A program made the position numbers and the translations under genes. From a virus, in the IMG/VR virus record IMGVR_UViG_3300017991_000062, positions 1-64,000 of that record: DNA of 64,000 bases; one strand, given 5' to 3'. A model generated the notes under the pieces. That model had not been told where the DNA came from and did not search any database. It was given only the letters and a program-made list of their open reading frames with translations. Positions 3,601 through 29,549 of this stretch are shown here, piece by piece; position 1 is the stretch's first letter; the number at the start of each line of letters is the position of its first letter.

Positions 3601-3629
3601 TTGACAGGAACGCAGGCATGCCCGAGCAT
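3601..3629 (+). promoter_or_regulatory. possible sigma70-like promoter for gat-queC
   Basis: TTGACA-17 nt-GAGCAT (perfect -35, weak -10) upstream of the AAGGAGG RBS. Confidence 0.35.
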
Positions 3630-12659: not shown

Positions 12660-12687
12660 GTTCCAGCCGGCCCAGTGAGGGGGAGCA

Positions 12688-14139
12688 GTGACGGCGGCCT
12701 TGCCGGCAATCGAGATCACACCGGAGAACCGTGACGACGTAATCCGCGCCGCATCCGAGTTCCAGGGCCTCACCGATGAGATGATTCGCAGGGCCGTGCT
12801 GGTCGAGAGCCGGTTCGACATCCTCGCAACCGAGGTGCTCGAAATCGAGCTGGAAGAGGTCCACCTCGAACTGCTCGCGTACATGCTGGAGCAGGACGAG
12901 TCGCTGCACCTGGCGTTTCGAGGCTGCGGCAAGACGACCAGCGCTGTCGGCCCCTACGTCGTCGGCCGCATCCTTCAGGACCCCGAGCTGTGCGTACTCA
13001 TCGCGAGCCGGACCGGCACCTACGCCCAGACCATCATGCGACAGGTCAAGGGCCACCTGGTCAACGACAAGCTGGTCAGGATCTTCGGCGAGCAGAAAGA
13101 CCCGACGAAGTGGGAGGCCACCGAGTCCAACGTGCTCGGCAAAACGAAGAACACGAAGGAGGCCACGCTCACGGCGCTCGGTGCCGAGGGCAGCCTCACC
13201 GGCCGGCACTTTGACATCATCATCGTGGATGACCTGTGCGACCTGGAGAACACCAGGACCAGGGCACAGCGCAAGCGGATTCACGACTTCTACTACACCA
13301 CCCTCGACAACTGCCTCAAGCCTGGCGGCCAGCGCAAAGTCATCGGCACCCGCTACCATCCTCACGACCTGTACGGCTGGCTCTCGTCCAACGACCTCAA
13401 GGGTGCGGTGCAGATCGTGCCGGCCCTCCACGAGCATGAAGACGAGGACGGCGAGATCCGCTACGAGTCCAGCGCGCCTCGCAGGTTCACCGTCGAGTAC
13501 CTGCTGAAGAAGCGGGCCAAGACCCCGGCGCTCATCTGGCTGATGCAGATGCAGTGCATCGCCGCCCGGTTCCAGGGCAAGGTGTTCAAGCCCGAGTACT
13601 TCGAGGGTGAGGACTTCTACTTCACCGAGCTGCCCGAGGGTCAGCTCTACCAGGTGGTCGACCCGGCCGTGACCGAGAAGACGGAGAACGACTACTTCGC
13701 GCACATGACCGGCGTCGTGGACAGCGACGGGGATGTGTGGGTGGACAGCTACCACAACCTCCGCATCGAGTTCCCGAAGCAGGCGCCATTCTGCATCGAC
13801 GAGTTCGACGAGCGCGACCCGGTGCGGCTCGGCATCGAGAGCAACGCCTACCAGGCCGCGCTCGGCCAGGAGATCCTCGACAGGCGCCCAGACCTGAAGG
13901 GGCGCATTATCGGCGTCCAGACCGACAAGGACAAGGTCACCAGGGCGCTGAAATTGACTTCGTACTTTGAGGCGGGCAGAATCCACATGAGGCACGAACA
14001 CCGGGAGCTAGTCCAACAGCTTCTGGAGTTCCCTGACGGAGAGCACGATGACCTATTCGACGCCCTCGACTTGCTGGTGCGCATCGGAACCCGGATGAGG
14101 GTAAAGAAGAAGCGGCGCCGTGAGCCCGGCGTGATCTAG
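12688..14139 (+). CDS. terL: terminase large subunit
   Basis: Walker A FRGCGKT, Walker B IIVDD, GTRYH coupling motif, RNase H-like VVDPA...HDDLFDA. Confidence 0.93.
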   Translation: MTAALPAIEITPENRDDVIRAASEFQGLTDEMIRRAVLVESRFDILATEVLEIELEEVHLELLAYMLEQDESLHLAFRGCGKTTSAVGPYVVGRILQDPELCVLIASRTGTYAQTIMRQVKGHLVNDKLVRIFGEQKDPTKWEATESNVLGKTKNTKEATLTALGAEGSLTGRHFDIIIVDDLCDLENTRTRAQRKRIHDFYYTTLDNCLKPGGQRKVIGTRYHPHDLYGWLSSNDLKGAVQIVPALHEHEDEDGEIRYESSAPRRFTVEYLLKKRAKTPALIWLMQMQCIAARFQGKVFKPEYFEGEDFYFTELPEGQLYQVVDPAVTEKTENDYFAHMTGVVDSDGDVWVDSYHNLRIEFPKQAPFCIDEFDERDPVRLGIESNAYQAALGQEILDRRPDLKGRIIGVQTDKDKVTRALKLTSYFEAGRIHMRHEHRELVQQLLEFPDGEHDDLFDALDLLVRIGTRMRVKKKRRREPGVI

Positions 14140-14148
14140 GAGGAGAGC

Positions 14149-15978
14149 ATGGGCGACAAGGTAACTCGCATCCGGCGCCGGCCTGTCATTGGGTCGTCGA
14201 AGTCTTCCCCCAGTGACGCCTCGTCCAGCTCGGTCGTCAGCCTGACCAAGGGAGCCGGGCCGCGTGCGGTGGTGAAGGCTCTGGTCGTGGAGGCCGACGA
14301 GAAGAAGGTCGACGGGCCGATCTCCCAGGTGATGCCCGACGACCCCTTCCGCGACTTGGTTCACTCGAAGATGGTGCTCGCGCCGCCGCTCGACCCGCGG
14401 CTGCTCACGGTGCTGTGGGAGCAGAACAGCTACCTCGGGCCGTGCATCGCCACGATGGCGGTCAACTGCGAGAGCTTCGGTCACCAGTTCACCCCTCGCA
14501 TCCAGGTCAACGACGAGACGCCGAAGGCTGTGCTGGCCCGCATGGAGGAGGAGAAGCTCCTGCTCGACAACTGGTTCAACAACTGCGTCATCGAGGGCGA
14601 GGACAGCTTCACCGGCCTGCGCATGCGGAAGCGGCAGGACGAGGAGGGTGTCGGATACGCGGCCTGGGAGGTGGTTGAGTTCAACACCGAGGTTCTGGGC
14701 TTCAACTACGTTCCGGCCCACACCGTCCGCTGTACCGGCCTGGACAAGATGCGGGTGCGGGCCTCGCACAAGATGCTGATGCGCCACGAGGACGGGACCT
14801 ACCGCTACATCGAGCGTCCGGTGTGGAAGCGGTTCCGCAAGTTCGTCCAGGTCCGCGGCTCGAAGATGCGGTGGTTCAAGGAGTACGGCGATCCGCGCAC
14901 GATGAACGCCGAGACCGGTGAGTACGTCAGCGGGCCTGGCGCCATCTCGGCCTACAAGAGGGCGAACTCGATCCTCTTCTTTGTGCAAGCCGCGGCCCGC
15001 ACCCCCTACGGTATCCCGCGGTACATCGGCAGCCTGCTCGGCATCTACGGCAGCCGCGCCACCGACGAGATCAACTTCTTCACCTTCGAGTCGAACAACG
15101 TCCCGAGCATGGCGGTCACCGTGTCGAACGGTATGCTCTCGGACGGCAGCGTGGACCGCATTCAGCAGTTCGTGGAGAAGCAGGCTTCCGGCCAGCGCAA
15201 CTATTCCCGCTTCCTCATCCTGGAGGCCGAGCCGGCGACGGACGGCCTGGGCGACCCGGGCCGGGTCGCACTCGACATCCAGCCGCTCACGGACCAGCAA
15301 CGCACCGACGCGATGTTCCTGAAGTACAAAGAGCAGGCCAAGGCCGACGTCCGTGGCGCCTTCCGGCTGCCCGACGTGTTCTTCGGCGAGGCGCCCCAGG
15401 GCGGCGCGGTCGGCGCGATGGAGACGATGCGCAAGCTGACCGACGAGCAGGTGTTCCTCCCCGAGCGCAACACCTTCGATGACCGCATGAATCGCCGCAT
15501 CCTGCCGGCCCTCGGCGTGGTGTACTGGCAGTTCAAGTCGAACACCCCGGAGACGACCGATAACAAGGACCTCATCCGCATCCTCGCGATGGCCGAGAAG
15601 TCGGGCGGCGTGAGCCCGGCCATCGCTCGCGAGATCATGAGCCGCGTCGTCGGTCACGACCTGGGCAAGGTCAAGGGCATCGACCCGGAGGTGCCCTACA
15701 CGCTCCAGGTCGCCCAGGCGCAGAAAACGGGCGGCGACCCGATGTCCACTGCCTCCCAGGCGGGAACCAACTCCCTGCGTCGGATGGGGGCCACTACGCG
15801 GGCAGAACTGGGGCTGGAGGACACTGCGAAGGCTAGCGAGGTCGAGACACCCTGGGAGGGCGAGGCTGTGCTCGCCGGCCTGGGCACGCTGGTCGATAGG
15901 ATCTCGGAGGAGCAGGAGGGGCGCACGGCCAAGGCCAAGGAGGTCAAGCGCGAGCGGCCCACGGTGAGCGGCGAGTAG
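14149..15978 (+). CDS. portal protein (PBSX/XkdE-like)
   Basis: follows TerL; WFKEYGDPR, YGIPRYIG, FESNNVP, AFRLP motifs. Confidence 0.88.
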   Translation: MGDKVTRIRRRPVIGSSKSSPSDASSSSVVSLTKGAGPRAVVKALVVEADEKKVDGPISQVMPDDPFRDLVHSKMVLAPPLDPRLLTVLWEQNSYLGPCIATMAVNCESFGHQFTPRIQVNDETPKAVLARMEEEKLLLDNWFNNCVIEGEDSFTGLRMRKRQDEEGVGYAAWEVVEFNTEVLGFNYVPAHTVRCTGLDKMRVRASHKMLMRHEDGTYRYIERPVWKRFRKFVQVRGSKMRWFKEYGDPRTMNAETGEYVSGPGAISAYKRANSILFFVQAAARTPYGIPRYIGSLLGIYGSRATDEINFFTFESNNVPSMAVTVSNGMLSDGSVDRIQQFVEKQASGQRNYSRFLILEAEPATDGLGDPGRVALDIQPLTDQQRTDAMFLKYKEQAKADVRGAFRLPDVFFGEAPQGGAVGAMETMRKLTDEQVFLPERNTFDDRMNRRILPALGVVYWQFKSNTPETTDNKDLIRILAMAEKSGGVSPAIAREIMSRVVGHDLGKVKGIDPEVPYTLQVAQAQKTGGDPMSTASQAGTNSLRRMGATTRAELGLEDTAKASEVETPWEGEAVLAGLGTLVDRISEEQEGRTAKAKEVKRERPTVSGE

Positions 15979-15985
15979 GCGGGGG

Positions 15986-18900
15986 ATGGCGCTTCCTGTC
16001 CAGACTGACGCGGTGGGCGACCTGCTCCACCGCATGACCGACGAACAGCTCTTCGTCGCCAAGGCGCAGGCACGCGAGGCCCTGGTGCTGGCCAGGGTCA
16101 TCAAGGTGGCCGACGCCTACCTCGCGGTCGAGGAGGACCTGGGCAAGCTGCTCGTCGGCCACTGGGATGACAAGGGCGCCGCGCTGGTGAAGAAGGGAGC
16201 CTCCGAGCTGGCCAAGGCCCAGGAGGGGAAGATCGTCCAGTCGACGCTGTACGAGAACCTCCTGAAGCTGAAGAAGCAGATGGGCAAGGAGTTCGGTGAG
16301 GAGATGCTCCCCCACCTCATCCGATCCTCGCTGCTCGTTTGGTCGATGAGCAGCAAGGAGACGATGGGGCGGCTCCAGCTCAAGTGGTCGACCGACCTGG
16401 TGGACAAGAAGGCTGCGGCGCAGCTCTCGAAGCATCACGCGTACTGGATCGGGAACCACTACAACACCTCCATCTCGGAGTCGCTGCGCCTGGCGACGAA
16501 AGAGGTCATCCTCGACGGCGGGCTGGCCGGCACACAGGCGGCCAAGGCGTACCGCGACATCACGACCGAGTACCTCGCAGGCAAGGGGAAGAAGTACCCC
16601 GGCGTTCCGCCCGGCTTCAAGGGCACGACCGACGACTACTTCGCAGGGGTGTCGAACCACGTCGGGACGCAGGCTAGGGTCTTCAGCCGGATGGAGTCGT
16701 ACCAGCGTGTCGGGATCACGACCTACCGGATCGTCGCGGTGCTGGACAACCGGACGAGCGATGTGTGCCGGATGATGCACGGCCAGACGTTCACCGTCGA
16801 GCAGGGCATGAAGACTGCCGGGGTGTGGACCCAGGGCATCGTCCACCCCGAGGTCGTGAAGAAGCAGGCCGGCTGGATGCGGCCGGCCGACATCGCGAAG
16901 ACGGCTGGCATCGCCTACACCCCGGGGGCTACCTCGCCGAAGATGAGCGCGAAGGGGATCGACGCGCTGGCCGAGAAGGGGCAGGCTCTCCCGCCCTATC
17001 ACTTCCGCTGCCGCACCGACGTCATCAGCTCGGGTGAGTACACCAGCTTCCCCACCGGGAGCGAGCCCAAGACCAAGCCCGTCAAGCCTCCGAAGAAGGA
17101 CCCGCCGAAGCCTCCCCCGGCTGCTCCGACCCCACCCGCGAAAGCGCCAGGCGCTTTCCCGTGGGCGATGACCGACATGACCCCCGTGCAGAAGTCTGCG
17201 AAGGGGATGCACTCGAAGCAGTTCTTCACCGACCCGAACGGCGATGAGTGGATGTTCAAGCCGGCACCGGAGGGGCTCAAGTTCCGCGCCGAGGTGGAGA
17301 AGCTCGCCGCCGATGCGGCCAGGGCTATTGGGGTTGACACGGCCGACGTCTATGTGGTGTCGCACAGGGGCAAGGCTGGCACCATCCAGCGGCTCTTCAA
17401 GGACGTGAAGCACGACGGCCTCGGCAACGTGGGCGTCAACGGCTTGTCGCAGAAGCAGGTCGCCGACCTCCAGCGGCAGCACGTCCTCGACTGGCTCATC
17501 GGGAATAACGACGGCCACCTCGACAACTTCCTGGTCCTGAAGAATGGCAAGCTGGTCGGCATCGACCGAGGGCAGGCGTTCCGATACTTCAAGACGGACA
17601 AGCTCGCCCTGGACTACAACCCGAACGCGAAGTACGGCATTGAGGTCTTCTACAACCGCTTCTTCGCCGCGGCCCGCGACGGCAAGCTACGCAAGGGTGT
17701 CCAGATGCTCGGCATGGACAGCCCCGAGATCCAAGCGCTGCTGAAGCAGGTGGGCAGCGTGAGCGACGACGAGTGGCTTGCCATCTGGAAGCCGTACATC
17801 GACGGCGCCCTGAAGAACCAGCGGCTCGCATACGGCAGCCGCAAGGCGTTCGAGGCCGAGTTGCTGCGGCGGAAGAACGAGCTGGCCGGCGACCTCGGTG
17901 AGTTCTACCGGAAGATTCTGGGCGAGGCTGCCAAGCCTGCGCCCAGGGTGTCGGCCCCGGCCGCGGCCCAGGGCAAGGCCATGACGCCGGTCGACGCGAA
18001 GTTCGTCAAAGCGATGCGCGACTCGAAGAACCGCGGCCGGTCGATCCTGGTGTCCACCGAGCGCGTCGAGAATGGCAACCTGCTCGTTTACACCTACGAC
18101 GACGGGACGGTGGTGGTCGAAGGCAAGCTGCGCGCTGGTGTCGGCGACCGGACAGCGCAGAAGCGGCTCCTCGGTTCGGAAGCCAAGGCCAAGGCGCCAC
18201 CCCCGTCCACCCCGGGCTCCGGGACCGATGGGTACTGGGACGAGGCCCTCACCTACATCAAGCATGTCAACTACCACCTCGGGCCGGGTGGCGACGGTGT
18301 CTTGAGCGGTGCCAAGAACAAGAGCTTCGAGGCGTTCATGGAGCTGCTCGAAGACATCTCCAAGAGCAAGACGGCTACCAGCGCGGAGAAGGCCGCGGCG
18401 AGGTATTACAAGAAGAAGCTCAAAATCTACGGCGACGAGAATGGCGGCTTCTTCACCGAGGAGAAGCTCAAGTCGACGGCCGTGGGGAAGAAGATCGATC
18501 CCTACAAGCCGAAGCCGAAGGCGACCAAGCCCAAGCCGAAAGCGGCGCCAGGCGAGAGCAACGGGATGAGCCCGCGGGTCAAGTCCTCGAAGGTGACCCA
18601 GATGGGCGAGGAGTCCCGGGAGATTGTCGACGGAAGCATCGTCAACCACCACGGCACCATGTCGCCGAGTGCATACGGCGGGAGCCGCGAGATCGACCGG
18701 ATGATCGTGGCCACCCTCGACGACGGCACCGAAATCACCTACATCCCACACGACGGGTACAAACAGGGGCAGGCGTACTCGCGGCAGGGCCGCTTCAGGA
18801 TCAAGGTGAGGGGGAAGGCCGGGAAGCCGGCCAGCAAGGAGCAGGTCGAGCAGGCCGTGGCCGCGCTGGACGACTTGGGCGTCAACACCCGGCTGATGAC

Positions 18901-19687
18901 GAAGCAGGACTTCGAGCTGCTCTACCTACGCAAGAATCAGTTCGCGATGGGGTGGGGCAACGACCAGGTGTTCGCAGGCGTCCCGACGACCGGCGACAAG
19001 GCCGAGCAGATCGAGGCGATGGTCAAGGCGTTCAAGAAGAAGCTCGGCCGCGACCCCCGCAAGATGCCGGGGTACAACCCGAACCCTCACTACTATAGCA
19101 GCGACGGCAACGGCATCGTCCGCTTCCAGCGGTTCGACATCTCGGATGCCGACCTTAAGAAGGCCAACCTCCAATTCGTCTCCGAGGTAACCGGCAGCGA
19201 GGACGCAGCATCGCTCTTGCTCAAGGTCATCGACGGCGAGACCGGCGGCCTCATCGCGACCGAGGAGAAGATCCGGCGCGGCATCCCGATCTCCGGGATG
19301 TCGCCTGTCGCTGACCAGTCGACCGGCGGTGCGCAGTTCGTGTTCACCAGGGCGCGGCGCAAGGCGAGGGTCAGTGGCCGGAACCGAATCGTGATGAGGA
19401 ACGACCTCGCACGCGACACGAACCTGGTGTCTTACAACGGTGACAAGTACGGTCGCATGGACTCGGCATTCAAGGAGCGCAACCGGGCCAAGGATCTGAA
19501 GGGCATCGAGGGACATATCGCGCGCCACGACAACGAGACGCTCTTCAAAAACGAGGTGCCCCTGGAGCAGTGGGACCACATCACCGTTTCGGCCGCGCAG
19601 AAAAAGACTCTGCTCGCAGAGCTGAAGGCGCGTGGTGTCACGCGCATCGCTGGCAAGCCGGTCAACCAGTTCGTACAGGCGAGGTGA
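15986..19687 (+). CDS. MuF (SPP1 gp7-like) minor head protein with kinase-like and additional C-terminal domains
   Basis: MuF: AVLDNRTSDVCRMMHG...PPYHFRCR; kinase: WMFKP...E...DWLIGNNDGHLDN...IDRG. Confidence 0.85.
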   Translation: MALPVQTDAVGDLLHRMTDEQLFVAKAQAREALVLARVIKVADAYLAVEEDLGKLLVGHWDDKGAALVKKGASELAKAQEGKIVQSTLYENLLKLKKQMGKEFGEEMLPHLIRSSLLVWSMSSKETMGRLQLKWSTDLVDKKAAAQLSKHHAYWIGNHYNTSISESLRLATKEVILDGGLAGTQAAKAYRDITTEYLAGKGKKYPGVPPGFKGTTDDYFAGVSNHVGTQARVFSRMESYQRVGITTYRIVAVLDNRTSDVCRMMHGQTFTVEQGMKTAGVWTQGIVHPEVVKKQAGWMRPADIAKTAGIAYTPGATSPKMSAKGIDALAEKGQALPPYHFRCRTDVISSGEYTSFPTGSEPKTKPVKPPKKDPPKPPPAAPTPPAKAPGAFPWAMTDMTPVQKSAKGMHSKQFFTDPNGDEWMFKPAPEGLKFRAEVEKLAADAARAIGVDTADVYVVSHRGKAGTIQRLFKDVKHDGLGNVGVNGLSQKQVADLQRQHVLDWLIGNNDGHLDNFLVLKNGKLVGIDRGQAFRYFKTDKLALDYNPNAKYGIEVFYNRFFAAARDGKLRKGVQMLGMDSPEIQALLKQVGSVSDDEWLAIWKPYIDGALKNQRLAYGSRKAFEAELLRRKNELAGDLGEFYRKILGEAAKPAPRVSAPAAAQGKAMTPVDAKFVKAMRDSKNRGRSILVSTERVENGNLLVYTYDDGTVVVEGKLRAGVGDRTAQKRLLGSEAKAKAPPPSTPGSGTDGYWDEALTYIKHVNYHLGPGGDGVLSGAKNKSFEAFMELLEDISKSKTATSAEKAAARYYKKKLKIYGDENGGFFTEEKLKSTAVGKKIDPYKPKPKATKPKPKAAPGESNGMSPRVKSSKVTQMGEESREIVDGSIVNHHGTMSPSAYGGSREIDRMIVATLDDGTEITYIPHDGYKQGQAYSRQGRFRIKVRGKAGKPASKEQVEQAVAALDDLGVNTRLMTKQDFELLYLRKNQFAMGWGNDQVFAGVPTTGDKAEQIEAMVKAFKKKLGRDPRKMPGYNPNPHYYSSDGNGIVRFQRFDISDADLKKANLQFVSEVTGSEDAASLLLKVIDGETGGLIATEEKIRRGIPISGMSPVADQSTGGAQFVFTRARRKARVSGRNRIVMRNDLARDTNLVSYNGDKYGRMDSAFKERNRAKDLKGIEGHIARHDNETLFKNEVPLEQWDHITVSAAQKKTLLAELKARGVTRIAGKPVNQFVQAR

Positions 19688-19690
19688 GGG

Positions 19691-20119
19691 GTGGGGAGCT
19701 ACACGAGCCGCGGTCGCAAGGTGAAGCCGGATACGGCAGCCGAGCACTTCGAGGAGCTGATGGGCCGCTTCGGTGGCATCATGGTCGAGCCGTTCTACGT
19801 GGGCGACGACGGCACCGAGCAGCCTATCACCGGCCCGACACCCTCGGCGTGGGCCAAGCTCGATCCCGGGCTGAAGCGCCTCGGGTGGTCGTGGGGTTCC
19901 AGCGCTCACCGGGTCGATTGGTTCGAGGCCAGGGTGGACGACGGCGACCTCCTGCTCATCGGCCCGAGCGACAACGAGGGCGAGCGATTGACTGGGGTGC
20001 TCATCTCGGGCATCCTCTTCGACGACGACCAGGCCATCCTGAAGCGGGGGAAGCGGCAGCTCGGGGAAGTGGGGCAAGCCAAGGCCGAGGCCCAGGTCGA
20101 CGAGGTGATGCGTGGCTAG
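19691..20119 (+). CDS. hypothetical protein (candidate MuF immunity/partner)
   Basis: directly downstream of muF; acidic. Confidence 0.5.
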   Translation: MGSYTSRGRKVKPDTAAEHFEELMGRFGGIMVEPFYVGDDGTEQPITGPTPSAWAKLDPGLKRLGWSWGSSAHRVDWFEARVDDGDLLLIGPSDNEGERLTGVLISGILFDDDQAILKRGKRQLGEVGQAKAEAQVDEVMRG

Positions 20120-20471
20120 GAAGTACACCGTCGTCTACCTCCAGCGCATGAACGGCGCCGACGTGTACACCATCGGCGGTTTCGGTTTCGCTGGCGACGA
20201 GGTGGTCATTCTTCCGGCGCCAGGCTTCGAGAACGAAGCTGCCGACTGGAGCCGGCGTCTGACCACGGCCATCCAGCACGGCACATCGCCTCGCGAGTTC
20301 TACGAGGCGTGGGATGAGCGCAACGGGGTCACCTACGGCTTCGGCCCACCCGACAGCGTCAAGGCCGGCAACGTGGTCGAGGCCACCCGGCAGGTGATGG
20401 AGCGCCACCCCGAGATCGGCAGTCAGTTCAACTGGGCCACTGCGCAGGCCCAGGCCCAGGAGGAAAGATGA
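20112..20471 (+). CDS. hypothetical protein (candidate MuF immunity/partner)
   Basis: overlaps the upstream gene; GAGG RBS. Confidence 0.5.
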   Translation: MARKYTVVYLQRMNGADVYTIGGFGFAGDEVVILPAPGFENEAADWSRRLTTAIQHGTSPREFYEAWDERNGVTYGFGPPDSVKAGNVVEATRQVMERHPEIGSQFNWATAQAQAQEER

Positions 20472-20656
20472 GCGAGCGACACCCATCACGGCCGGACCCG
20501 ATGCCCGAGCTGGAAGAGCTGTACCTCGCTGGTCGGCTGACCGAGGCGCAGTTCCAGAAGCGACTCCTTGCCGAGCACACCCTCGAAGGCGCCGACCGGC
20601 TGCGGAAGCGGTGGGCTGCTCGCAAGGCCACCCTGGACAAGGAGGCCCAGTCGTGA
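20468..20656 (+). CDS. small hypothetical protein
   Basis: 4-nt overlaps on both sides. Confidence 0.5.
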   Translation: MSERHPSRPDPMPELEELYLAGRLTEAQFQKRLLAEHTLEGADRLRKRWAARKATLDKEAQS

Positions 20657-21285
20657 AGATCAAGGATGTGAAACCCGCGGTGCTGCGCGAGGTGTCGGAC
20701 AAGGAGCTGCTTTCCCTGCACCTGCGCACTCACCAGCTCTACGGCGCGAACTTCGGGCCGGACGCACCTGCCGGCCGCGGCTACAAGGACGACAAGGGTG
20801 TCGACGCAGTGGATGGGCTGCGGCTCTCCGACGACGGCGCCCTCGCCATCTGGAAGGGCGCTGCGAAGGTGGTGCGGCTGCGCGAGCGCCTGGGCAACTT
20901 CGGGCGGCCGTTCTTCCTCCTGTCGCCGAGCTATGCCTACGGCATCATCCGGCTCGGCAAGCCGCGCAAGGACAGCAACGACTATCCGGTCGAGTACTTC
21001 CGCGGTTTCAAGGTGCCCCTGAAGTACGAGGCGACGGGCGACGGCACCATCCCGCAGAAGGTGGCCATCGTGGGCGAGGAGAAGATGAGCCTGGAGGACC
21101 TGGTTCACGCCCACCTGTTCATCAAGGAGGAGATGGAGCGGCGCAAGCTCGACCACAACCGGGTGAGCGAGCTGGACGACGAGAAGCTGCCCACGGCCAA
21201 GGCCGCCGAGGTGCTCCTGGACCGCGAGCTGACATTCTGGGCTGCCGGTGAGGAAGGCGAGGTGCTCGATGTGGACAGTGCGTAA
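20653..21285 (+). CDS. His-containing helical domain with inserted ASCH/PUA-like segment (putative)
   Basis: SDKELLSLHLRTHQL...HAHLFIKEEMERRKLDH flanking GLRL..ALAIWKG...YGIIRLGKP...FKVPLKY. Confidence 0.5.
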   Translation: MKIKDVKPAVLREVSDKELLSLHLRTHQLYGANFGPDAPAGRGYKDDKGVDAVDGLRLSDDGALAIWKGAAKVVRLRERLGNFGRPFFLLSPSYAYGIIRLGKPRKDSNDYPVEYFRGFKVPLKYEATGDGTIPQKVAIVGEEKMSLEDLVHAHLFIKEEMERRKLDHNRVSELDDEKLPTAKAAEVLLDRELTFWAAGEEGEVLDVDSA

Positions 21286-21649
21286 GGTTGTCGAGTTCGA
21301 TTCCGCTCACCACCTGCCGGACCACCCCGGGAAGTGCAAGCGCCTCCACGGCCATCGCTGGAAGGTCGTGATTGAGGTGGCCGCGGCCGAGCTGGACGGC
21401 GAGGGCATGGTCTGCGACTTCGGCGAGCTGGGCCGCCCCGTCAAGGAGCTGGACCACGCCTACCTCAACGACGTACCCCCATTTGACACGACCCCTCCCA
21501 CGGCCGAGAACCTCGCGAAGTGGGTGGTCGACCAGGTGCGTCCGCTGGTGCCGAACGCCTGCCGGGTGATGGCCACCGTGAGCGAGACGCCGGGCAACGA
21601 TGCCTCGTTCCTGTGGGTGCGCGACTTCTGCGAAGCTGGCCTGCCGTGA
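21269..21649 (+). CDS. queD: 6-carboxytetrahydropterin synthase
   Basis: FDSAHHL, CKRLHGH, DFGEL, LDHAYLND, PTAENLA, SETP. Confidence 0.95.
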   Translation: MWTVRKVVEFDSAHHLPDHPGKCKRLHGHRWKVVIEVAAAELDGEGMVCDFGELGRPVKELDHAYLNDVPPFDTTPPTAENLAKWVVDQVRPLVPNACRVMATVSETPGNDASFLWVRDFCEAGLP

Positions 21650-22254
21650 CCCGGGGCAAGCTCTACCAAGTGGCCGACTGCTTCTACTCGCTCCAGGGCG
21701 AGGGCGGCCGGGCCGGCGCGCCGTCTGTCTTCCTGCGCTTCGCGGGGTGTAACCTGCACTGCACGAAGGCGACGGCCGGCTTCGACTGCGATACCGACCA
21801 TCAGGCGAACCTGCTCCTGCCCCTGGGCGGTGTGGTGCAGGTGGTCAAGGTGGCCGACCTGGGCGACTGCGGGTGGGTGGTGCTGACCGGTGGCGAGCCC
21901 GCGCTTCAGCTCGACACCGAGCTGGTCGAGGCACTCCACGGAGCCGGCTATCGCCTGGCGGTGGAGTCCAACGGCACCCTCTCCCTTCCTGACGGCATCG
22001 ACTGGGTGACGGTGTCGCCCAAGCGAGGCTCGGGGCCGCTCGCCGCCCGCAACGCGACCGAGGTCAAGGTGGTGATGCAGGCCGGCGACCCGCTGCCCGA
22101 GTGCGACATCGAAGCTGACTACTACTACTTGAGCCCGGCCCACGATGGCGACCAGATCGACCAGGCCGCGCTCGATCACTGCGTTCGGCTGTGCCTTGAG
22201 AACCCGAGGTGGAAGCTCTCGACGCAGCAACACAAGGCATGGAGGATCAAATGA
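21646..22254 (+). CDS. queE: 7-carboxy-7-deazaguanine synthase (radical SAM)
   Basis: [19 protein letters not shown]...[26 protein letters not shown]. Confidence 0.95.
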
Positions 22255-22820
22255 CGGGGGAACAGCGGCAGGAGGCCGAGGCGCTGGTGCGGCGGATGCT
22301 GGAGCTGATTGGGGACGACCCAGAGCGACAGGGGCTCAAAGATACCCCGGCGAGGGTGGTGCGGTCGTGGACGGAGCTGTTCGGCGGCTACAGCGAAGAT
22401 CCGGCCGACCTGGTGCGAACCTTTGACACCACCTACGACCAGATCGTCGTCTGCGAGGGCATCGACTACTTCTCCACCTGCGAGCACCACCTGCTCCCGT
22501 TCCACGGCCACGCTCACGTCGCCTACCTGCCCCAGGAGAAAGGTCGCGTGCTCGGGCTGTCGAAGATGGTGCGCATCGTCCAGGTGTACGCCCGGCGGCT
22601 TCAGATCCAAGAGCAGATGACCGAGCAGATCGCCGAGGCGATTCAGTCAGCTATCGACCCCAAGGGTGTCGCCGTGGTGGTCGAGGGGCAGCACCTCTGC
22701 ATGATGGCTCGCGGGGTGAAGCAGGCCCACGCGACGATGAAGACTTCTTGCCTCCTCGGGGCGTTCCGTGATGATATGGCGGCACGAGCCGAGGTGCTGT
22801 CGCTCCTGGGCGTGCGGTAG
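22251..22820 (+). CDS. folE: GTP cyclohydrolase I
   Basis: [38 protein letters not shown]. Confidence 0.97.
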
Positions 22821-22828
22821 GAGGCGTC

Positions 22829-25681
22829 ATGGGCTACGGCGTGAAGGACTTCCACTACTACTTCGCGGTCGACCGAGCCGACTACCGCAAGTTCGGGCAC
22901 CTGCTCCAGGGTGGCGACATTCTGGTCAGCTACGTGTACCTCCGAGAGGCGGCCGACAAGAAAGGCGAGTTCCTCGCGGACGTGAAGGCCCACAAGGGCC
23001 GGGTGATGCTGGACAGCGGCGGCTTCACCAACTTCTTCACGCCTGGCAGCGTCAAGTTCAAAGACTGGGCCGACTTCGTGAAGTCGAACCAGAGCTGGCT
23101 CGATGAGGTGGTGCAGTTCGACGACCTCAAGAGCAGGCGCAAGACGCTCGACTTCTACGACGAGGCCATCAAGCTCGGGCTCGACCCGCTGTTCGTGGAC
23201 CACCTGCGCTTCCACACCGAGAAGGATCGGGCCGGGAAAATCTGGAAGGCCAAGCCCAAGGTCTGCATCGCCGGCTTCGGCAAGGCCAAGCCCGACCAGG
23301 ACAAGAAGAGCCCGGTGTATGACGCGAAGCGGCTGCACGAGGCGTTCGTGCAGGGCCGCGAGGTGAAGACCGTCGTGCACATGCTCGGCGTCGGCAGCAT
23401 CAAGAAGTTCCTCCCGTGGCTCGACGTCATCCACAGCGTCGACTCGGCGAGCTGGGACAAGGCTGCGGCGTTCGGGAAGGTGCTGGTGCTCCAGGCGGAG
23501 GATCTGGGCGACGGTATCAAGATCCCGATCCTGAAGAACTACACCTACCCCGGCAACCCGCGGCGCACCGACCACCCGATCCCGCGCGAGCAGATGGACG
23601 CCGACTGGAACGGGCCGGTGAAGCGGCTCAAGCTCGACAAGTGGTCGGTCACGCAGCGGGCCAAGGGCGTCACCATCTACCACATGAAGCGCTATGTGGA
23701 GGCGGTGCGCAAGCTCGACCCGGTGAAGCTGACGAAGCAGCTCGAAGAGCTGCGCGCGGCCAAGGCCGAGGCGGGCTCGACCAGTTACTTCTTCCTCGGT
23801 GACGACTTCTGGTACGAGCCCGACCCGACGCCCGTGGCCAAGGACGACGGCGAGCAGCTCGACCGCGGCGAGGTCATGGGCCACCTGGAGCAGGCCGGTT
23901 CCTTCGTGGTGGTGCCCGGCTTTGTGTCGCTGGTCGGTTCGACGCTGACAGGCCAGGACGGTGACCCGGCCAAGGACGTCGACCTGCTCGTTCGCGCTGA
24001 CGAGGTGGACCCCAAGGTGGCGGTGAAGCTGGAGCGCCTGTTCCCGCCCGAGATGCAGGGCAAGGTCCACGTCGTCGGCGATGCCCAGGGCCCGAACTGG
24101 AAGCACCTGCCACTCTACGACCTGGTCGCCCGCAAGCGGGAGAAGCTGGTCGCAGTGGAGGTCGATGAGCCCGACTACCAACCCTTCCCGACGCAGCCTG
24201 GCGCTGGACGCCCGAACCTGACCAAGGTGGTGAAGCAGGGCACCGACCTCGACCCTGCCGAAACCGAGCTGACCCGGGAGGAGGCGCGCGAGCTGACGGA
24301 GGCGGTGCAGGGCGACCCCTACCAGGTGGAGCAGAAGGGGAAGCGGAAGTACCGCTTCGTCCTTCAGCACCACTACCGCGGCTTCTGGAGCGAGGACGAG
24401 CGGAAGCAGATCCGGTCGATGCTGCGTCAGGCCCAGGCCGCGGCCAAGGCCGGCGACACGAAGAAGGCCGAGGGGCTGCTCAATGGGGTGTGGTCCGACT
24501 TCAAGCCGGTGCGCCTCAAGTCCGACATCGACGCGGTGAAGACCGCTGCCCAGGCTGCCGAGGATGCGAGCGACGGCAACGTCGGCGCGGCCGTGCGGCG
24601 CAATCTGACCTCCGACGTTCCCGGGCTGGACAAGCTGGCCGGTGTCGAGGGCAGCATCGTCAACCTCGGCAACGTCCACACCGACCTGCGGATGGAGAGT
24701 CCGGCCGGTAAGTGGCTCGTTGGCTGGACGCTGGACACCCCCAAGGTCGCGCTCCAGACGCTCGACGGCAAGGCGCACAACCTGCTCCGCTGCAAGGTGA
24801 TGGACAACCGCGAGGGCGACAACATCGTCGCGCAGCGCAAGCTCGTCCAGCCGGTGTCGTGGCTCACCATCGTCAGCAAGGAGAAGCCCGTCGTGACGAC
24901 GGCGCCAGGCGAGGCCGGCTCGACTGCCGGCACCACTGGTGAGTTCCACTACGTCGACTCGGGCGAGGTCATCTTCGGCGTGCAGAAGACCGACTTCCAC
25001 GAGTACTTCCTCTTCCCCAAGTCGGGCAAGTGGGGCGGCCGGTGGGGCATCCAGATCGTGGAGGGGAAGCCCGACTATGAGAAGGCGCCCGGCGAGTTCT
25101 GGATGGCCAACCGGCCCGCGAAGACGCAGGAGCCGTACATCCAGACCCACGACCGGAAGAAGGAGGAGGCCAAGGCCAAGGAGGACGGGGTCGACGTGGT
25201 GTGGAACCCCGACACCGTGCCTGCGCTGCGGGCTGCCGGCTACAAGCCGCTCAAGGACGAGGTGAAGAAGGACGCGGACGACGTGGTGCGCGTCGCCCTC
25301 CAGGTTCCCATCGCGAAGGTTGCCAAGGAAGAGCGATACGTCATGGGAATCGTGATGGTCCCGGAGGCCACCGACGCCCACGGCGAGAAGGCCACGGCCA
25401 AGGAGATCCGGGAGGCCGCTCACAAATTTCTTGTCAGCGGAGCGAAGATCGGGTATCAACATCAAGAGATCCCAGGTGGCCTAGTACTGCTGGAGAGTTA
25501 CCTTGCCCCGGTCGAATTCAAGCTCGGTAACAAGACCATCCCGAAGGGGACGTGGCTCATGGCCGTGCGGGTCAATAACGATGAGGTCTGGAAAGAGGTC
25601 AAGGCCGGACGCATCACTGGGTTCAGCATCGAGGGCTACGCGAAGAAGGTCCCGCTGAAGCCGAAGCCGAAGGAGAGCTGA
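22829..25681 (+). CDS. polyprotein: TGT/DpdA-like transglycosylase + Pol-beta nucleotidyltransferase + LigD-type 3'-phosphoesterase + XkdF-like prohead protease
   Basis: VMLDSGGF / VHMLG / SVDSASW (aa ~1-297); VSLVGS...KDVDLLVR (aa ~343-445); FVLQHH...HTDLRME...GWTL (aa ~508-775); GIVMVP..DAHGE...H...ESYLAP...GTWL...GFSIEG (aa ~834-950). Confidence 0.8.
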   Translation: MGYGVKDFHYYFAVDRADYRKFGHLLQGGDILVSYVYLREAADKKGEFLADVKAHKGRVMLDSGGFTNFFTPGSVKFKDWADFVKSNQSWLDEVVQFDDLKSRRKTLDFYDEAIKLGLDPLFVDHLRFHTEKDRAGKIWKAKPKVCIAGFGKAKPDQDKKSPVYDAKRLHEAFVQGREVKTVVHMLGVGSIKKFLPWLDVIHSVDSASWDKAAAFGKVLVLQAEDLGDGIKIPILKNYTYPGNPRRTDHPIPREQMDADWNGPVKRLKLDKWSVTQRAKGVTIYHMKRYVEAVRKLDPVKLTKQLEELRAAKAEAGSTSYFFLGDDFWYEPDPTPVAKDDGEQLDRGEVMGHLEQAGSFVVVPGFVSLVGSTLTGQDGDPAKDVDLLVRADEVDPKVAVKLERLFPPEMQGKVHVVGDAQGPNWKHLPLYDLVARKREKLVAVEVDEPDYQPFPTQPGAGRPNLTKVVKQGTDLDPAETELTREEARELTEAVQGDPYQVEQKGKRKYRFVLQHHYRGFWSEDERKQIRSMLRQAQAAAKAGDTKKAEGLLNGVWSDFKPVRLKSDIDAVKTAAQAAEDASDGNVGAAVRRNLTSDVPGLDKLAGVEGSIVNLGNVHTDLRMESPAGKWLVGWTLDTPKVALQTLDGKAHNLLRCKVMDNREGDNIVAQRKLVQPVSWLTIVSKEKPVVTTAPGEAGSTAGTTGEFHYVDSGEVIFGVQKTDFHEYFLFPKSGKWGGRWGIQIVEGKPDYEKAPGEFWMANRPAKTQEPYIQTHDRKKEEAKAKEDGVDVVWNPDTVPALRAAGYKPLKDEVKKDADDVVRVALQVPIAKVAKEERYVMGIVMVPEATDAHGEKATAKEIREAAHKFLVSGAKIGYQHQEIPGGLVLLESYLAPVEFKLGNKTIPKGTWLMAVRVNNDEVWKEVKAGRITGFSIEGYAKKVPLKPKPKES

Positions 25682-25682
25682 C

Positions 25683-26732
25683 GTGTCCGACAAGGAAGCC
25701 CACACAGAACTTCGCGACATCCGGGTCACGAACGTCGACCTGGTGGACCAAGCTGCGAACGAGCAGAGCTTCGAGGTAGTCAAACGGAAGGAGGGCCGTA
25801 GCATGGCCGACAAGACCAAGGTGCGCAAGGACGCGGAGACCGAGGAGGAGCAGGTCGCGGAGGAGGTCGCCAGCGGCGCCGACACCGACACCAGCACCGA
25901 CACCGACACGGACACCGAGGCCGGGGCCGGCGGCGACTCCGATGGTGGGGAGGACAACTCCGAGGGCGACGACGCCACGCCCGTCGAGAAGGCGACCGCC
26001 GCGATGGTGGACCTCGTCGGCAAGCTGGAGGGCGTGCTCGACAGCCTGGTCGACAAGGGCAAGAAGGAGACCAAGGCCGAGGGCGAGGAGGACGAGGAGG
26101 AGACCGGCAAGACCAAGAAGGCCGAGCCCGCGGCGATGGTCAAGGCGTGCCTCGACAAGCTCTCCAAGATGGAGGACCTGCCCGAGGCGGCCAAGAAGCT
26201 CGTCGCCGACGCGGTCGACGCCCTGGCCAAGATGGGCGACGACTACCCCTCGGCCGCCGAGAAGGAGAAGGCCGAGAAGAAGAAGGCCGAGGAGAAGAAG
26301 AAGGCCGAGGGCGAGGACGACGAGGACGGCGAGGTCGCCAAGGCCGGCCGGAAGATCAGCGCCAAGAACGTCAAGGTCCTCCAGGCCGCGGCCGACTCCC
26401 TGGGCAAGGCCACCGAGGCGCTCACCGGCATGCTCAAGGAGGCCAAGGGCGGCGACGACGAGGAGGAGACCGGCAAGACCAAGAAGTCGGCCGACGCCTC
26501 CGACGCCGAGACCGAGGCCCTGGTCAAGCTGACCAAGGCGGCCGACACGCTGGTCGACGGCGTGGGCAAGCTGGCCAAGCGGCTCGACGACATCGAGGCC
26601 GGCGTGGGCATCACCAAGTCGCTCGGCGACGACGAGGGTGACGACACCAAGGTCGAGAAGTCGGGCGTCTGGACCGGCGAGGGGTCGAGCCTGGCGCTCG
26701 TCCCGCCGGGCTTCGGCGGCGCCAAGAAGTAG
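25683..26732 (+). CDS. capsid scaffolding protein with N-terminal protease-like strand
   Basis: acidic coiled-coil protein preceding the MCP; N-terminal VTNVDLVDQAAN; second strong start at 25803. Confidence 0.75.
   Translation: MSDKEAHTELRDIRVTNVDLVDQAANEQSFEVVKRKEGRSMADKTKVRKDAETEEEQVAEEVASGADTDTSTDTDTDTEAGAGGDSDGGEDNSEGDDATPVEKATAAMVDLVGKLEGVLDSLVDKGKKETKAEGEEDEEETGKTKKAEPAAMVKACLDKLSKMEDLPEAAKKLVADAVDALAKMGDDYPSAAEKEKAEKKKAEEKKKAEGEDDEDGEVAKAGRKISAKNVKVLQAAADSLGKATEALTGMLKEAKGGDDEEETGKTKKSADASDAETEALVKLTKAADTLVDGVGKLAKRLDDIEAGVGITKSLGDDEGDDTKVEKSGVWTGEGSSLALVPPGFGGAKK
26091..26486 (+). repeat. 30-nt exact direct repeat (DEEETGKTKK) in the scaffold gene
   Basis: GACGAGGAGGAGACCGGCAAGACCAAGAAG at 26091-26120 and 26457-26486. 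Confidence 0.85.
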
Positions 26733-26809
26733 TCAACCGCCGCGAAGGACGCGGTGCACCACAACGGACCCAGTGGGGTAACAGGGTCAGGAAGAGGAGG
26801 GACGAGACA

Positions 26810-28015
26810 ATGTCCGTACCGAACGAGGAAGTCCTGCGCAAGGCGGTCATCACCACCGATGCCATCACGTCGGCAGGCAAGCTCAACCCCGTCCAGGCGG
26901 ATCGGTTCATCGACTACGTCTGGGACATCACCAAGCTCAAGGGCCACGCGCGCACCGTGAAGTTCCGCGCCGAGGAGCTGTACATCGACAAGGTCGGTGT
27001 CGGCACCCGCGTCGCGGTCCCCAAGGTGGAGGCGGTGGACCCGGGCGTTCGCCGGGGCATCAGCACCTCGCGGGTGACCCTCCACCCCGAGGAGACGATG
27101 TGCCCCTTCGAGGTCTCCTACGAGATGCTCGATGAGAACCTGGAGGGCGAGGCCTTCGCCGAGCACCTCGTGAAGATGTTCGCGACCCAGTACGCGAACG
27201 ACACCGAGGAGCTGTTCATCCAGGGCGACAAGCTCGGCGCGGCCATCCTGGAGTCCGAGTACGTCGCGGGCGGCTCGACCACCCAGTACATCAAGGACGC
27301 CTACCTGGCCCTCCAGGACGGCTGGCTCACCCTGGCCCGGCAGGGCCACGGCGTCGACTTCGCGGGCGCGAACATCTCCAACCGGCTCTTCAGCCGGCTC
27401 ATCAACGCCCTGCCCGAGAAGTTCAAGCGGGACCGCTCCAAGCTGCGCTTCTTCACGAGCACGGACCTGGAGCAGAACTTCCGCGAGAAGACGGCCGCCC
27501 GCGCCACCGGCAAGGGCGACGACGCCCTGATGTCCAGCGCGCCGCTGACCCCCTTCGGCATCCCGCTCATCGGCATCCCGCTCCTCCCCTTCCAGCCGAA
27601 GACGGTGGAGCACCTGACCCTGACCGGCACCACGGCCGTCCCGCTCCTGTACAAGAACGTGACGAACGTGACCGTGCTCCCGAGCACCCTCGACAAGACG
27701 CCGACCACCCCGTACACCGAGGGCGCCGGCAACGACTACATCCTGGACGCGGTCAACGGCACCATCGCGCGTGATGCCGCCTCGACCATCCCGAGCGGTG
27801 CCACGGTCAAGGTCACCTACCAGGCGCAGGCCCAGATCATCCTGACCCACGAGTCGAACTTCATCATCGGCATGGGCCGCGACTCGATCCGCCTGGAGAG
27901 CGACCGCGACATCTTCAAGTCGACCCTCCAGTACTCGCTGACTGCGAAGGTCGCCTGCGAGTTCGAGGAGGCCGACGCCATCGCCTTCGGCTACAACGTC
28001 GGCCTCGGCGTCTAG
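26810..28015 (+). CDS. major capsid protein (HK97 fold) with inserted beta domain
   Basis: GKLNPVQADRFID, LDENLEGE, ELFIQGD, DGWL; position after scaffold; strong RBS. Confidence 0.9.
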   Translation: MSVPNEEVLRKAVITTDAITSAGKLNPVQADRFIDYVWDITKLKGHARTVKFRAEELYIDKVGVGTRVAVPKVEAVDPGVRRGISTSRVTLHPEETMCPFEVSYEMLDENLEGEAFAEHLVKMFATQYANDTEELFIQGDKLGAAILESEYVAGGSTTQYIKDAYLALQDGWLTLARQGHGVDFAGANISNRLFSRLINALPEKFKRDRSKLRFFTSTDLEQNFREKTAARATGKGDDALMSSAPLTPFGIPLIGIPLLPFQPKTVEHLTLTGTTAVPLLYKNVTNVTVLPSTLDKTPTTPYTEGAGNDYILDAVNGTIARDAASTIPSGATVKVTYQAQAQIILTHESNFIIGMGRDSIRLESDRDIFKSTLQYSLTAKVACEFEEADAIAFGYNVGLGV

Positions 28016-28051
28016 CGGCTGATGGTGCTGCTCGGTTCCTAGTGCGAATCC

Positions 28052-28083
28052 CGGCCGGGGCGGCTTCCGAGCCGCCCCGGCCG
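28052..28083 (+). terminator. hairpin after the major capsid gene
   Basis: CGGCCGGGGCGGCT-TCCG-AGCCGCCCCGGCCG. Confidence 0.7.
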
Positions 28084-28115
28084 TGCCCTGTCAACGCCCA
28101 AAGAGGAGGGACCTC

Positions 28116-28673
28116 ATGGCGACCGCCCGCAAGCCCAAGTCAGGGGCCAAGAAGAAGCCCGCTGCCAAGGCAAGCAAGAAGAAGCCGGCCAAGAAGAAGG
28201 CCGCGGCCAAGGCGAAGCCCAAGGCCAAGCCTGCGCCGCCTCCCGATCCCGATCCCGAGAAGATGCCCGAGTGCTATGGCGACAAGGACCGCCTGGACCC
28301 AGGTGACCCCGAGTGCATCGCCTGTCCGTCGATGGACGGCTGTGCCGACGAGGTCGCTCTGTCGCCCATCCCTGCCCGCGAGCCCGAGCCCGAGCCCGAG
28401 CCGGTCAAGGGCGGCCCGGTGACCACCGACGACCTCCCCAAGTCCGAGAAGAAGCCCCCGCGGCGGGCGAGGCCCCCCGTGGCGCCTGGCGCCGGGCTCG
28501 CGGTGCCCGACGGTGGTGCGGTGGTCACCCTGCTCCGTGGCGCGAGCGACACACCCTTCCTGGGTGGGCCGAAGTTCTTGAACGGCCACTCGCAGACCGT
28601 CCGCGACCCGAAGCAGGTGGCCGCGCTGAAGCTGAACCCCCGCTACTCGGTCGTGACGGCCGAGGACCAGTAG
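28116..28673 (+). CDS. Lys/Ala-rich (histone H1-like) N-terminus plus 4-Cys motif protein
   Basis: AKKKPAAKASKKKPAKKKAAAKAKPK; CYG...CIAC...C; ATG 28116 after GAGGAGG. Confidence 0.65.
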   Translation: MATARKPKSGAKKKPAAKASKKKPAKKKAAAKAKPKAKPAPPPDPDPEKMPECYGDKDRLDPGDPECIACPSMDGCADEVALSPIPAREPEPEPEPVKGGPVTTDDLPKSEKKPPRRARPPVAPGAGLAVPDGGAVVTLLRGASDTPFLGGPKFLNGHSQTVRDPKQVAALKLNPRYSVVTAEDQ

Positions 28674-28682
28674 GAGGACGCG

Positions 28683-29132
28683 ATGCCCTGGAAGGTACGA
28701 CTGTCCCGGCGCGGTTCGCTCCCCGTCGTGACCTCGGTTCGCAAGCTCGTCCTGGTCGGAGGCCGATGGGTCCGCGTGAGCGACCAGGAGAAGGCCGAGC
28801 TGGAGGACAGCGACGTCGCGGCCCGGCTGGAGTTCCGCGAGATGCCGACCGCTCCGCAGGATACGCCCGAGGCCCCCGTCGACCGTGCGGCGGCGGCCAA
28901 GGCCCGCGTGAAGGCCAAGGCCAAGGTGAAGGCCAAGGCCAAGGCTGACACCGAGGCTGCCCAGGCCCAGGCTGACCAGGAGCGCGAGGAGCGCGAGACG
29001 GCCGCCGCGGAGGAGGCCGCTGCCGAGGACAGCGACATCACCTCTCACGTTCCCGGCAAGGCGCAGCACGACAAGCCCAAGAAGCGGCGCGGCCGGAAGA
29101 AGAAGAAGGCTGCCGAGGGCGAGGGCGAGTAG
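28683..29132 (+). CDS. charged low-complexity hypothetical protein
   Basis: AGGAGG RBS; KAKAK runs. Confidence 0.6.
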   Translation: MPWKVRLSRRGSLPVVTSVRKLVLVGGRWVRVSDQEKAELEDSDVAARLEFREMPTAPQDTPEAPVDRAAAAKARVKAKAKVKAKAKADTEAAQAQADQEREERETAAAEEAAAEDSDITSHVPGKAQHDKPKKRRGRKKKKAAEGEGE

Positions 29133-29153
29133 TCGCATCATGCAGGGGGCGAC

Positions 29154-29549
29154 GTGCTCAAGGTCAACCTCCGCGATGGTCGGACTCTCACATTCGACCT
29201 CCTAGATCCTGCCGAGATGCAAGCCTGGTGTGCTCACCAGGCCGACCCCAAGTTCCAGTCAGAGATCACAGGCGCAGGCATCCAACACGACGGCACGCTG
29301 CTCGCCCTGCCGGTGCCCCAAGGCTTCCATCGCAAGGTGTACGAGGCCGAGGTGCTCTACCGAGGCAACGGCGACGGCCGAAAGGTTGCGGCCGAGCGCC
29401 TCACCTGCTACGCTGACTCCATCCGGCTGTCGGTCACGGCCCACCACGGCAACCGCCCCAGGGTCGTCAAATACGCCGCGGCCAAGGTCGGCCGAATGCG
29501 CTACAGCCCGGCCATCCACGGCCCGGTGAAGAAGGGAGATGAACGATGA
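29154..29549 (+). CDS. hypothetical protein
   Basis: operonic ORF. Confidence 0.55.
   Translation: MLKVNLRDGRTLTFDLLDPAEMQAWCAHQADPKFQSEITGAGIQHDGTLLALPVPQGFHRKVYEAEVLYRGNGDGRKVAAERLTCYADSIRLSVTAHHGNRPRVVKYAAAKVGRMRYSPAIHGPVKKGDER

Follow-up and report, generated by a model that had tools for sequence, protein, structure and literature searches.

The first 64 kb (henceforth the window) of the 113,077-bp IMG/VR virus record IMGVR_UViG_3300017991_000062, a genome rated complete by CheckV, contain a cluster of three genes, queD, queE and folE, in the midst of the genes for head morphogenesis. The cluster lies on the + strand and comprises queD (21269-21649; 126 aa, ATG start), queE (21646-22254; 202 aa, GTG start) and folE (22251-22820; 189 aa, ATG start). 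It is directly followed by an open reading frame (ORF) of 950 aa, with an ATG at 22829 (22829-25681, + strand), that combines a DpdA-type DNA-guanine transglycosylase domain with a prohead protease of the XkdF family. The stop codon of queD and the start codon of queE share the tetranucleotide GTGA and those of queE and folE share ATGA, resulting in two 4-nt overlaps, while the last ORF before the cluster (the leader ORF, 20653-21285, + strand; 210 aa) overlaps queD by 17 nt and the spacer between folE and the 950-aa ORF measures 8 nt, including a GGAGG. The initial annotation had described three overlapping genes on the strand of the virion operon, 8 nt upstream of a TGT-like domain, and both the coordinates and the identities of this description were confirmed. 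Its placement of the trio between the muF gene and the protease polyprotein also holds, with the refinement that four small ORFs (19691-21285, + strand), of which the leader is the last, separate the MuF gene from queD. As for its view of these genes as a preQ0-pathway set, queD, queE and folE are indeed clustered, but the queC function lies outside the cluster, in a gat-queC fusion gene at 3649-5142.

The que trio: ordinary enzymes in an unusual architecture

The product of queD is recovered by the Pfam PTPS profile (PF01242, E 5.9e-33; 113.9 bits against a cut-off of 22.4) and by phrog_2389, and passes the NCBIfam equivalog model TIGR03367 (97.4 bits; cut-off 89.25). Within its residues 13-30 the AHH, KC and HGH motifs are readable, which we take to be the zinc-binding histidines and the catalytic cysteine of QueD. 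FolE matches PF01227 (E 9e-69) and phrog_2197, passes the curated cut-offs of TIGR00063 (215.6 bits versus 181.6) and NF006826 (236.7 versus 162), and displays the Cys/His motif of the zinc site as CEHH and HLC. QueE was detected by TIGR04508 (E 3e-46) and by a QueE-like PHROG (E 4e-27), and the Burkholderia QueE (PDB 4njg) matches residues 6-199, i.e. nearly the full length, with E 8e-34. The three cysteines that bind the [4Fe-4S] cluster of radical-SAM enzymes are present in QueE with the spacing C-x3-C-x8-C (aa 34-48), and the first and third of them align with cluster cysteines of 4njg and 6nhl. The same spacing occurs in the QueE proteins of four related IMG/VR loci described below (L016, L020, L026 and L028), three others (L017, L018 and L029) have the canonical C-x3-C-x2-C, and L019, L021 and L025 have longer inserts.

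The GC content at third codon positions (GC3) of the que genes is 0.86-0.88, equal to that of the neighboring genes, and their overall GC matches too (that of the window is ~67%). A recent horizontal acquisition of the que genes is hence unsupported, the GC3 values implying that they were not acquired recently. When the DNA of the region was searched against phage records, short stretches of folE were all that matched. Thus, the enzymes of the trio are ordinary and it is their architecture that is not.

A DpdA-type domain fused to a prohead protease

The transglycosylase domain occupies aa 1 to ~320 of the 950-aa ORF (22829-23790) and is followed by a nucleotidyltransferase (NTase)-like region, a region resembling the LigD phosphoesterase and the XkdF prohead protease (together 23791-25681, + strand), with long linker-like stretches between the domains. 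The protease domain at the C-terminus (Peptidase_S78_2/XkdF, PF14550; aa 828-940, E 1e-30) also matches phrog_3017. Residues 341-943 align with the polyproteins of the related loci L005 and L016, and relatives within this polyprotein family possess the PF01068 ligase and PF13298 LigD_N domains.

Several lines of evidence relate the N-terminal domain to DpdA. It matches phrog_887 (E 6e-12), and its AlphaFold2 model (pLDDT 88, pTM 0.87) adopts the TGT barrel fold, the best Foldseek matches being ArcTGT (1j2b/1iq8), bacterial TGT and QTRT1 (probability 1.00, TM ~0.5). A profile of the fused proteins run against the PDB sequences gave no TGT match, the fold search being what recovered the TGT fold. 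Profile-profile comparisons with hhalign linked the domain to the Rosebushvirus DpdA (probability 98.5, E 3.5e-15) and to the Queuovirinae DpdA of phage pVco-14 (probability 99.6), and the DSG-F and VDS-W motifs are kept between it and the phage DpdAs. A search of 50,697 phage records returned just three matches, at 23-24% identity. By these comparisons its closest relatives appear to be the Queuovirinae-type enzymes, and we do not assign it to any of the DpdA1-4 subfamilies.

The detached gat-queC gene and the predicted DNA base

QueC is found fused to a class-II glutamine amidotransferase, apart from the que trio and beside the sliding clamp gene (1667-2839). The Gat-QueC protein (gene at 3649-5142, + strand) matches PF06508 at aa 245-461 (E 2.7e-42) in addition to GATase_6/7. 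Its longest ORF starts with a TTG at 3601; however, an internal ATG at 3649 yields an N-terminal Met-Cys, and since this would supply the nucleophile needed by class-II (Ntn) amidotransferases, 3649 is the likely start.

DpdA, FolE, QueD, QueE and a QueC-type enzyme are all encoded in the genome, one copy each, and the DpdA domain is the single DpdA/TGT-like sequence of the 113-kb genome. This is the combination that constitutes a 7-deazaguanine DNA modification system when present in one genome (PMC6884629, PMC10516641). In phage 9g the presence of Gat-QueC instead of QueC results in 2'-deoxyarchaeosine (dG+) (PMC6884629), and dG+ is therefore the predicted product here, with dPreQ0, which is carried by Rosebushvirus DNA (PMC6884629), as the alternative.

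Recurrence of the arrangement in other phages

The gene order portal-MuF-...-queD-queE-folE-(queC)-DpdA~protease-scaffold-capsid recurs in at least 11 other uncultivated phage contigs, and the que/DpdA placement is hence not an event private to this phage. The same placement of the que genes is seen in the IMG/VR loci L016-L021, L023-L026, L028, L029 and L125, in contigs whose capsid proteins share 26-73% identity with that of the window. The loci named here, except for L125, were found by an alignment-based search of IMG/VR, the peptide-pattern search with the DpdA domain alone having found none. The search with the DpdA region recovered ten other proteins of 564-1633 aa (32-47% identity), every one of which contains the protease domain. 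The fusion is kept in 10 of the 11 distinct relatives; the remaining one, L028, encodes DpdA (368 aa) and the protease (329 aa) as separate ORFs overlapping by 8 nt (L028:9932-12020), which represents either a natural unfused form or an assembly frameshift.

The content of the cassette varies. In L016, L019, L020, L021 and L023/24 queC is itself part of it. Between queC and the DpdA polyprotein L016 additionally has a gene for a YhhQ/Vut_1-type transporter (L016:9496-9999) and L023 one for an ArcS-core (DUF5591) protein (L023:9062-9943), and the head-module cassette therefore has preQ0, G+ and salvage flavors. The interval between folE and DpdA in L026 (L026:4415-8007) and L028 (L028:6414-9935) holds a second PTPS-like gene, a radical-SAM gene and a PAPS-reductase-like gene, accompanied in L026 by a GT4-type glycosyltransferase. 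The second PTPS-like protein of these loci is possibly a DpdL-type decarboxylase of 7-carboxy-7-deazaguanine, and QueC is absent from the complete genome of L028. This gene set, together with the lack of QueC in L028, suggests a different, perhaps glycosylated, 7-deazaguanine derivative. For the radical-SAM gene and the PAPS-reductase-like gene in the slot of L026, the 113-kb genome has no detectable homologue.

To place these loci in their clade, we used a capsid-profile search, which recovered 506 capsid relatives in IMG/VR, the best 80 of which form our census of the region between MuF and the protease. Just three of these 80 possess que genes and DpdA (L102, which is the same contig as L018, L123 and L125), most having MuF followed by a bare protease. 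MuF and the protease are 0.2 to 8.3 kb apart in them (median 1.5 kb), and the insert includes a Dam-type methylase in 7/80, a C5 methylase in 1/80, and only ligase, phosphoesterase or NTase domains in several others. Thus, the presence of que genes in the head operon is a minority state in this clade.

In the cultured phages sampled, que clusters occupy other positions. The initial annotation had held that they usually lie in DNA-metabolism regions. This is borne out by pVco-14 (between helicase and polymerase), R5C (between primase/helicase and exonuclease genes) and IME-SM1 (beside polymerase, recA and primase), but not by Rosebushvirus, in which ParB-DpdA-QueC-QueD-QueE-FolE stand directly before the terminase gene and overlap it.

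A hypervariable slot with exchangeable DNA-modification modules

The upstream border of the slot is a MuF-like head protein of 1233 aa with a HipA/PI3K-like kinase region (15986-19687, + strand), the position of whose gene after that for the portal is kept in ~60 relatives. The Pfam matches of this protein (Phage_Mu_F, HipA_C and PI3_PI4_kinase) all fall under the curated cut-offs; the HipA_C and PI3/PI4-kinase-like matches, at aa 404-533, resemble the kinase domains of virion-delivered polyvalent proteins. The downstream border is formed by the genes for the scaffold (25683-26732, + strand; matching the N-terminal segment of phrog_3017) and the major capsid protein (26810-28015, + strand; phrog_1623, E 3e-70).

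The closest capsid relatives differ in what lies between these borders. L079 (IMGVR_UViG_3300009082_000002), the nearest of them (80% capsid identity; a complete genome with terminal repeats), has in its slot (upstream of 10001), in order and fused in frame, leader, Dam, NTase, Dam, ligase, phosphoesterase and protease, its Dam segments being of the N6-adenine methylase type. In L005 (74%) the entire slot, from the leader through the XkdF protease, is a single ORF of 2648 aa (L005:610-8553) consisting of the leader, four to five tandem stretches of C5 cytosine DNA methylase, an NTase-like region, an ATP-dependent DNA ligase, a phosphoesterase-like region and XkdF, and in L016 (73%) the slot contains a que cassette. 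Most relatives run MuF-protease-scaffold-capsid with a free protease of ~150 aa and no que genes on the examined contigs. The complete genomes without the slot module (L079, L087 and L090) lack QueC, and neither FolE nor QueC is found in the longer fragments G002 and G004.

The leader ORF provides a clue to the history of the slot. It has no Pfam or PHROG match and no usable match in the ESM Atlas, and its only full-length homologues in an exhaustive phmmer search are the N-termini of proteins of 1761 aa and 2643 aa, in which domains of Dam or C5 methylase, of ligase and of XkdF protease are also present. The homologue of the leader in L016 likewise stands directly before queD. Hence, the que genes of the window and of L016 separate two pieces that form one gene in sister phages, which favors a module swap over an insertion followed by fusion, the resident gene having probably been, judging from these sister architectures, a long enzyme-protease polyprotein already. 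Two short motifs of the leader (aa 1-35 and 145-187) are also found, N-terminally or internally, in ~20 other proteins, which measure 82-2190 aa; of the seven large ones inspected, six have an XkdF protease at their end. This ORF might act as a leader or as a module for targeting or cleavage.

Phylogenetic trees add a further aspect. In the capsid tree the window, L005 and L016 group together (100/100). The DpdA tree contains a split uniting the window with L016, L017, L018 and L019 (99/100), the QueE tree unites L017, L018 and L029 (95/98), and in the FolE tree the pair L017+L018 (97/97) falls outside a weaker group (91/93) with the window and L016. The split in the DpdA tree and that in the QueE tree exclude each other, indicating that supply genes and transglycosylase have recombined within the slot. 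The initial annotation had proposed that the que genes and the TGT domain arrived as one cassette whose last gene fused in frame to a resident head gene. Synteny does portray DpdA and the que genes as an addition attached to the head protease; however, given the conflicting trees they were not always one cassette, and the long polyproteins of L079 and L005 and the separate leader ORF fit a module swap better than a simple fusion. On these comparative grounds, the que genes and DpdA are best described as one exchangeable unit for DNA modification, lodged in the hypervariable slot that extends from MuF to the protease.

Expression of the cluster

The cluster is part of a single gene train on the + strand, spanning 12688 to ~59600 and starting with the terminase (12688-14139) and portal (14149-15978) genes, in which all junctions from terminase to scaffold either overlap or measure at most 9 nt. 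No terminator-like site was found on the + strand at 12233-30000, the count being no higher than in shuffled sequences. Likewise, there is no sigma-70-like site in or near the que cluster; the only two, one per strand, lie at 13.9 kb inside the terminase gene, no more than in shuffles. Both scans are weak evidence. A heptamer considered a candidate promoter of the phage does not occur between 11196 and 59651. From the gene packing, late co-expression of the que trio with the head genes, and with it the timing of precursor synthesis with head assembly that the initial annotation had proposed, would be expected; packing and scans together fit co-transcription with the head genes, short of proof. 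The phage is uncultivated and originates from a sediment metagenome, and the sequencing runs listed as containing the window comprise a single DNA run from sediment, probably the source sample, and no RNA run.

Functional interpretation

We consider it likely that the que trio is the supply arm of the DpdA module, and that it lies in the head operon because this module, interchangeable with methylase modules, is tied to the prohead protease. The observed gene identities, their coupling, the variability of the slot, the recurrence in other phages and the single DpdA of the genome are the foundation of this proposal. QueD, QueE and FolE would convert GTP to 7-carboxy-7-deazaguanine, which the detached Gat-QueC would convert to preQ0 and further to the archaeosine base. 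The trio would thus be found in the head operon because it travels with DpdA. In this clade the slot would accommodate interchangeable modules, namely a Dam methylase, a C5 methylase or DpdA, all of them in fusion with the prohead protease. A methylase, which draws only on the S-adenosylmethionine of the host, could therefore be housed in one ORF; DpdA depends on a special base, and its supply genes would therefore accompany it as separate, translationally coupled ORFs. The genes for base synthesis would then probably be transcribed together with the late head genes. What the final base is chemically, that it is made late and why the fusion exists are what we infer from these observations, and the tie to the protease might serve either capsid loading or merely expression as a polyprotein.

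Several points weigh against this interpretation. QueE scores under all the NCBIfam QueE equivalog cut-offs (best TIGR04508, 157.9 bits versus 240) and the spacing of its cluster cysteines is unusual, although by its alignments it is clearly homologous to QueE. The DpdA domain is matched by neither Pfam TGT (PF01702) nor DUF6610 (PF20314), and having a single cysteine in 320 aa it lacks the TGT zinc site; by the same token, DpdA surveys based on these two Pfam models would overlook the present subfamily. The conflict of the DpdA tree with those of QueE and FolE indicates that travelling together has exceptions, the position of gat-queC in a different, possibly earlier-expressed module means that the steps of the pathway may differ in timing, and an internal promoter inside coding sequence is possible.

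Two further readings concern the role of the fusion itself. In the first, which we regard as possible though doubtful, modification would be coupled to the capsid: the protease fusion would carry DpdA (and in the sister phages methylases, ligase and phosphoesterase) into the procapsid, with guanine exchange at packaging or ejection of the enzymes, and the que genes would be late so as to supply the base. The one DpdA of the genome has a covalent link to the prohead protease, 10 of the 11 distinct relatives, across capsid identities of 26-73%, retain the fusion, and different DNA enzymes are fused in the same manner, all of which speaks for such a mechanism. Phage P1 DarB, a packaged methylase/helicase, offers a parallel. 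So does the proteolytically processed internal protein DdrB of the darA operon, which is packaged in the P1 head (PMC5512222), and the kinase-like domain of the upstream MuF protein recalls those of virion-delivered polyvalent proteins (PMC5512222). However, access to DNA packed into a full capsid is poor, the capsid would have to admit the free base, an ejected DpdA would be of little use on DNA that is already modified, and L028 encodes DpdA and the protease in two overlapping ORFs rather than in one.

That same split form, showing that DpdA can work unfused, along with the long linker-like stretches between the domains, points instead to a polyprotein acting in the cytoplasm, where the protease would free DpdA and the repair enzymes and the fusion would provide late, stoichiometric expression with no link to the capsid. 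Release of domains by autoproteolysis has indeed been proposed for the peptidases of polyvalent proteins (PMC5512222). We hold this equally tentatively: it leaves unexplained why the modules stand exactly at the protease N-terminus throughout the clade. Moreover, XkdF-type proteases are prohead maturation enzymes, normally active in the procapsid, as also stated in their Pfam description.

The location might also be neutral, the cluster having settled in a recombination-permissive slot and being expressed early or in mid-infection from its own internal promoter, in which case its position would be silent on timing. The hypervariability of the slot (0.2-8.3 kb), the recombination within it evident from the trees, the position of gat-queC in the replication module and the low power of the promoter scans are all compatible with this. 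Nevertheless, the start and stop codons overlap without leaving non-coding space, the same order and tight packing are found in distant relatives and the GC3 is ameliorated, making this explanation unlikely. Least probable is that the que genes, as an auxiliary metabolic function (a class to which some authors assign phage que genes; PMC8265664), raise queuosine in host tRNA to aid late-protein translation rather than serve DNA modification, given the DpdA-type enzyme 8 nt downstream, the failure to detect QueF, QueA or a bacterial TGT in the genome, the channeling of the product of the phage 9g Gat-QueC to DpdA and not to tRNA (PMC6884629) and a GC3 near 0.9, by which the phage mostly uses C-ending codons.

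Returning to the view of the que trio as the supply arm of a protease-tied DpdA module, a broader and distinctly more speculative extension would be that this clade camouflages its DNA by means of the capsid machinery. DpdA, Dam or C5 enzymes with LigD-like repair domains would enter the procapsid as N-terminal cargo of the protease and act during packaging or after ejection, and the base operon (queD-queE-folE, in some cases plus queC, yhhQ, ArcS or a glycosyltransferase) would have been drawn into the head operon, such that the base is timed to head filling. Published work treats 7-deazaguanine DNA modification as a post-replication step. In the present clade the sole transglycosylase is joined to the prohead protease, and its supply genes lie in the head operon. 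The slot thus offers a natural swap series for studying where and when phage DNA is modified, protease-mediated capsid loading and the recruitment of a pathway to its enzyme.

Comparison with known systems

We found no published description of a que trio with a DpdA~protease fusion in a head operon, and in the two key papers on 7-deazaguanine DNA modification the capsid, head, terminase and packaging are never mentioned. The closest functional counterpart is the dG+ system of phage 9g and the Queuovirinae, which has a homologous DpdA and the same five functions, including a Gat-QueC that diverts preQ0 to archaeosine (PMC6884629). In those phages they are encoded in a single block amid helicase and polymerase genes, with DpdA as an unfused protein of ~310 aa, whereas here DpdA is fused to the prohead protease (with an identity of 23-24% to its counterparts), the trio is in the head operon and gat-queC is 17 kb away. 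The cluster of Rosebushvirus (mycobacteriophage cluster B) resembles the present one in the order queD-queE-folE, in lying on the strand of the virion genes and in the overlap of its last gene with the terminase gene, and thereby provides a cultured precedent for a que cluster touching a morphogenesis operon. It differs in standing before the terminase at the genome end, outside the head module, with ParB, a free DpdA and QueC, and in having no fusion to a virion protein.

In terms of architecture, the polyvalent proteins (Iyer et al. 2017, PMC5512222) and the internal proteins of the P1 darA system are comparable. Both are long proteins in which several domains (methylases, Pol-beta NTases, kinases and a peptidase) are combined; their genes lie among those of the virion, and packaging is predicted or known for them. 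The survey of polyvalent proteins (PMC5512222) nowhere mentions queuosine, deazaguanine, XkdF or LigD, and its mentions of transglycosylases refer only to peptidoglycan-cleaving domains. The present proteins share the polyvalent-type architecture, i.e. multidomain enzymes with a peptidase domain among virion genes. Unlike the present module, none of the described polyvalent proteins is known to have a small-molecule supply operon of its own. Finally, the mom gene of phage Mu makes its DNA modification only late, to the benefit of the packaged DNA. Its chemistry is unrelated, and mom is one gene, located at the end of the genome and not fused to head proteins; nevertheless, it stands as a precedent for late base modification of phage DNA.

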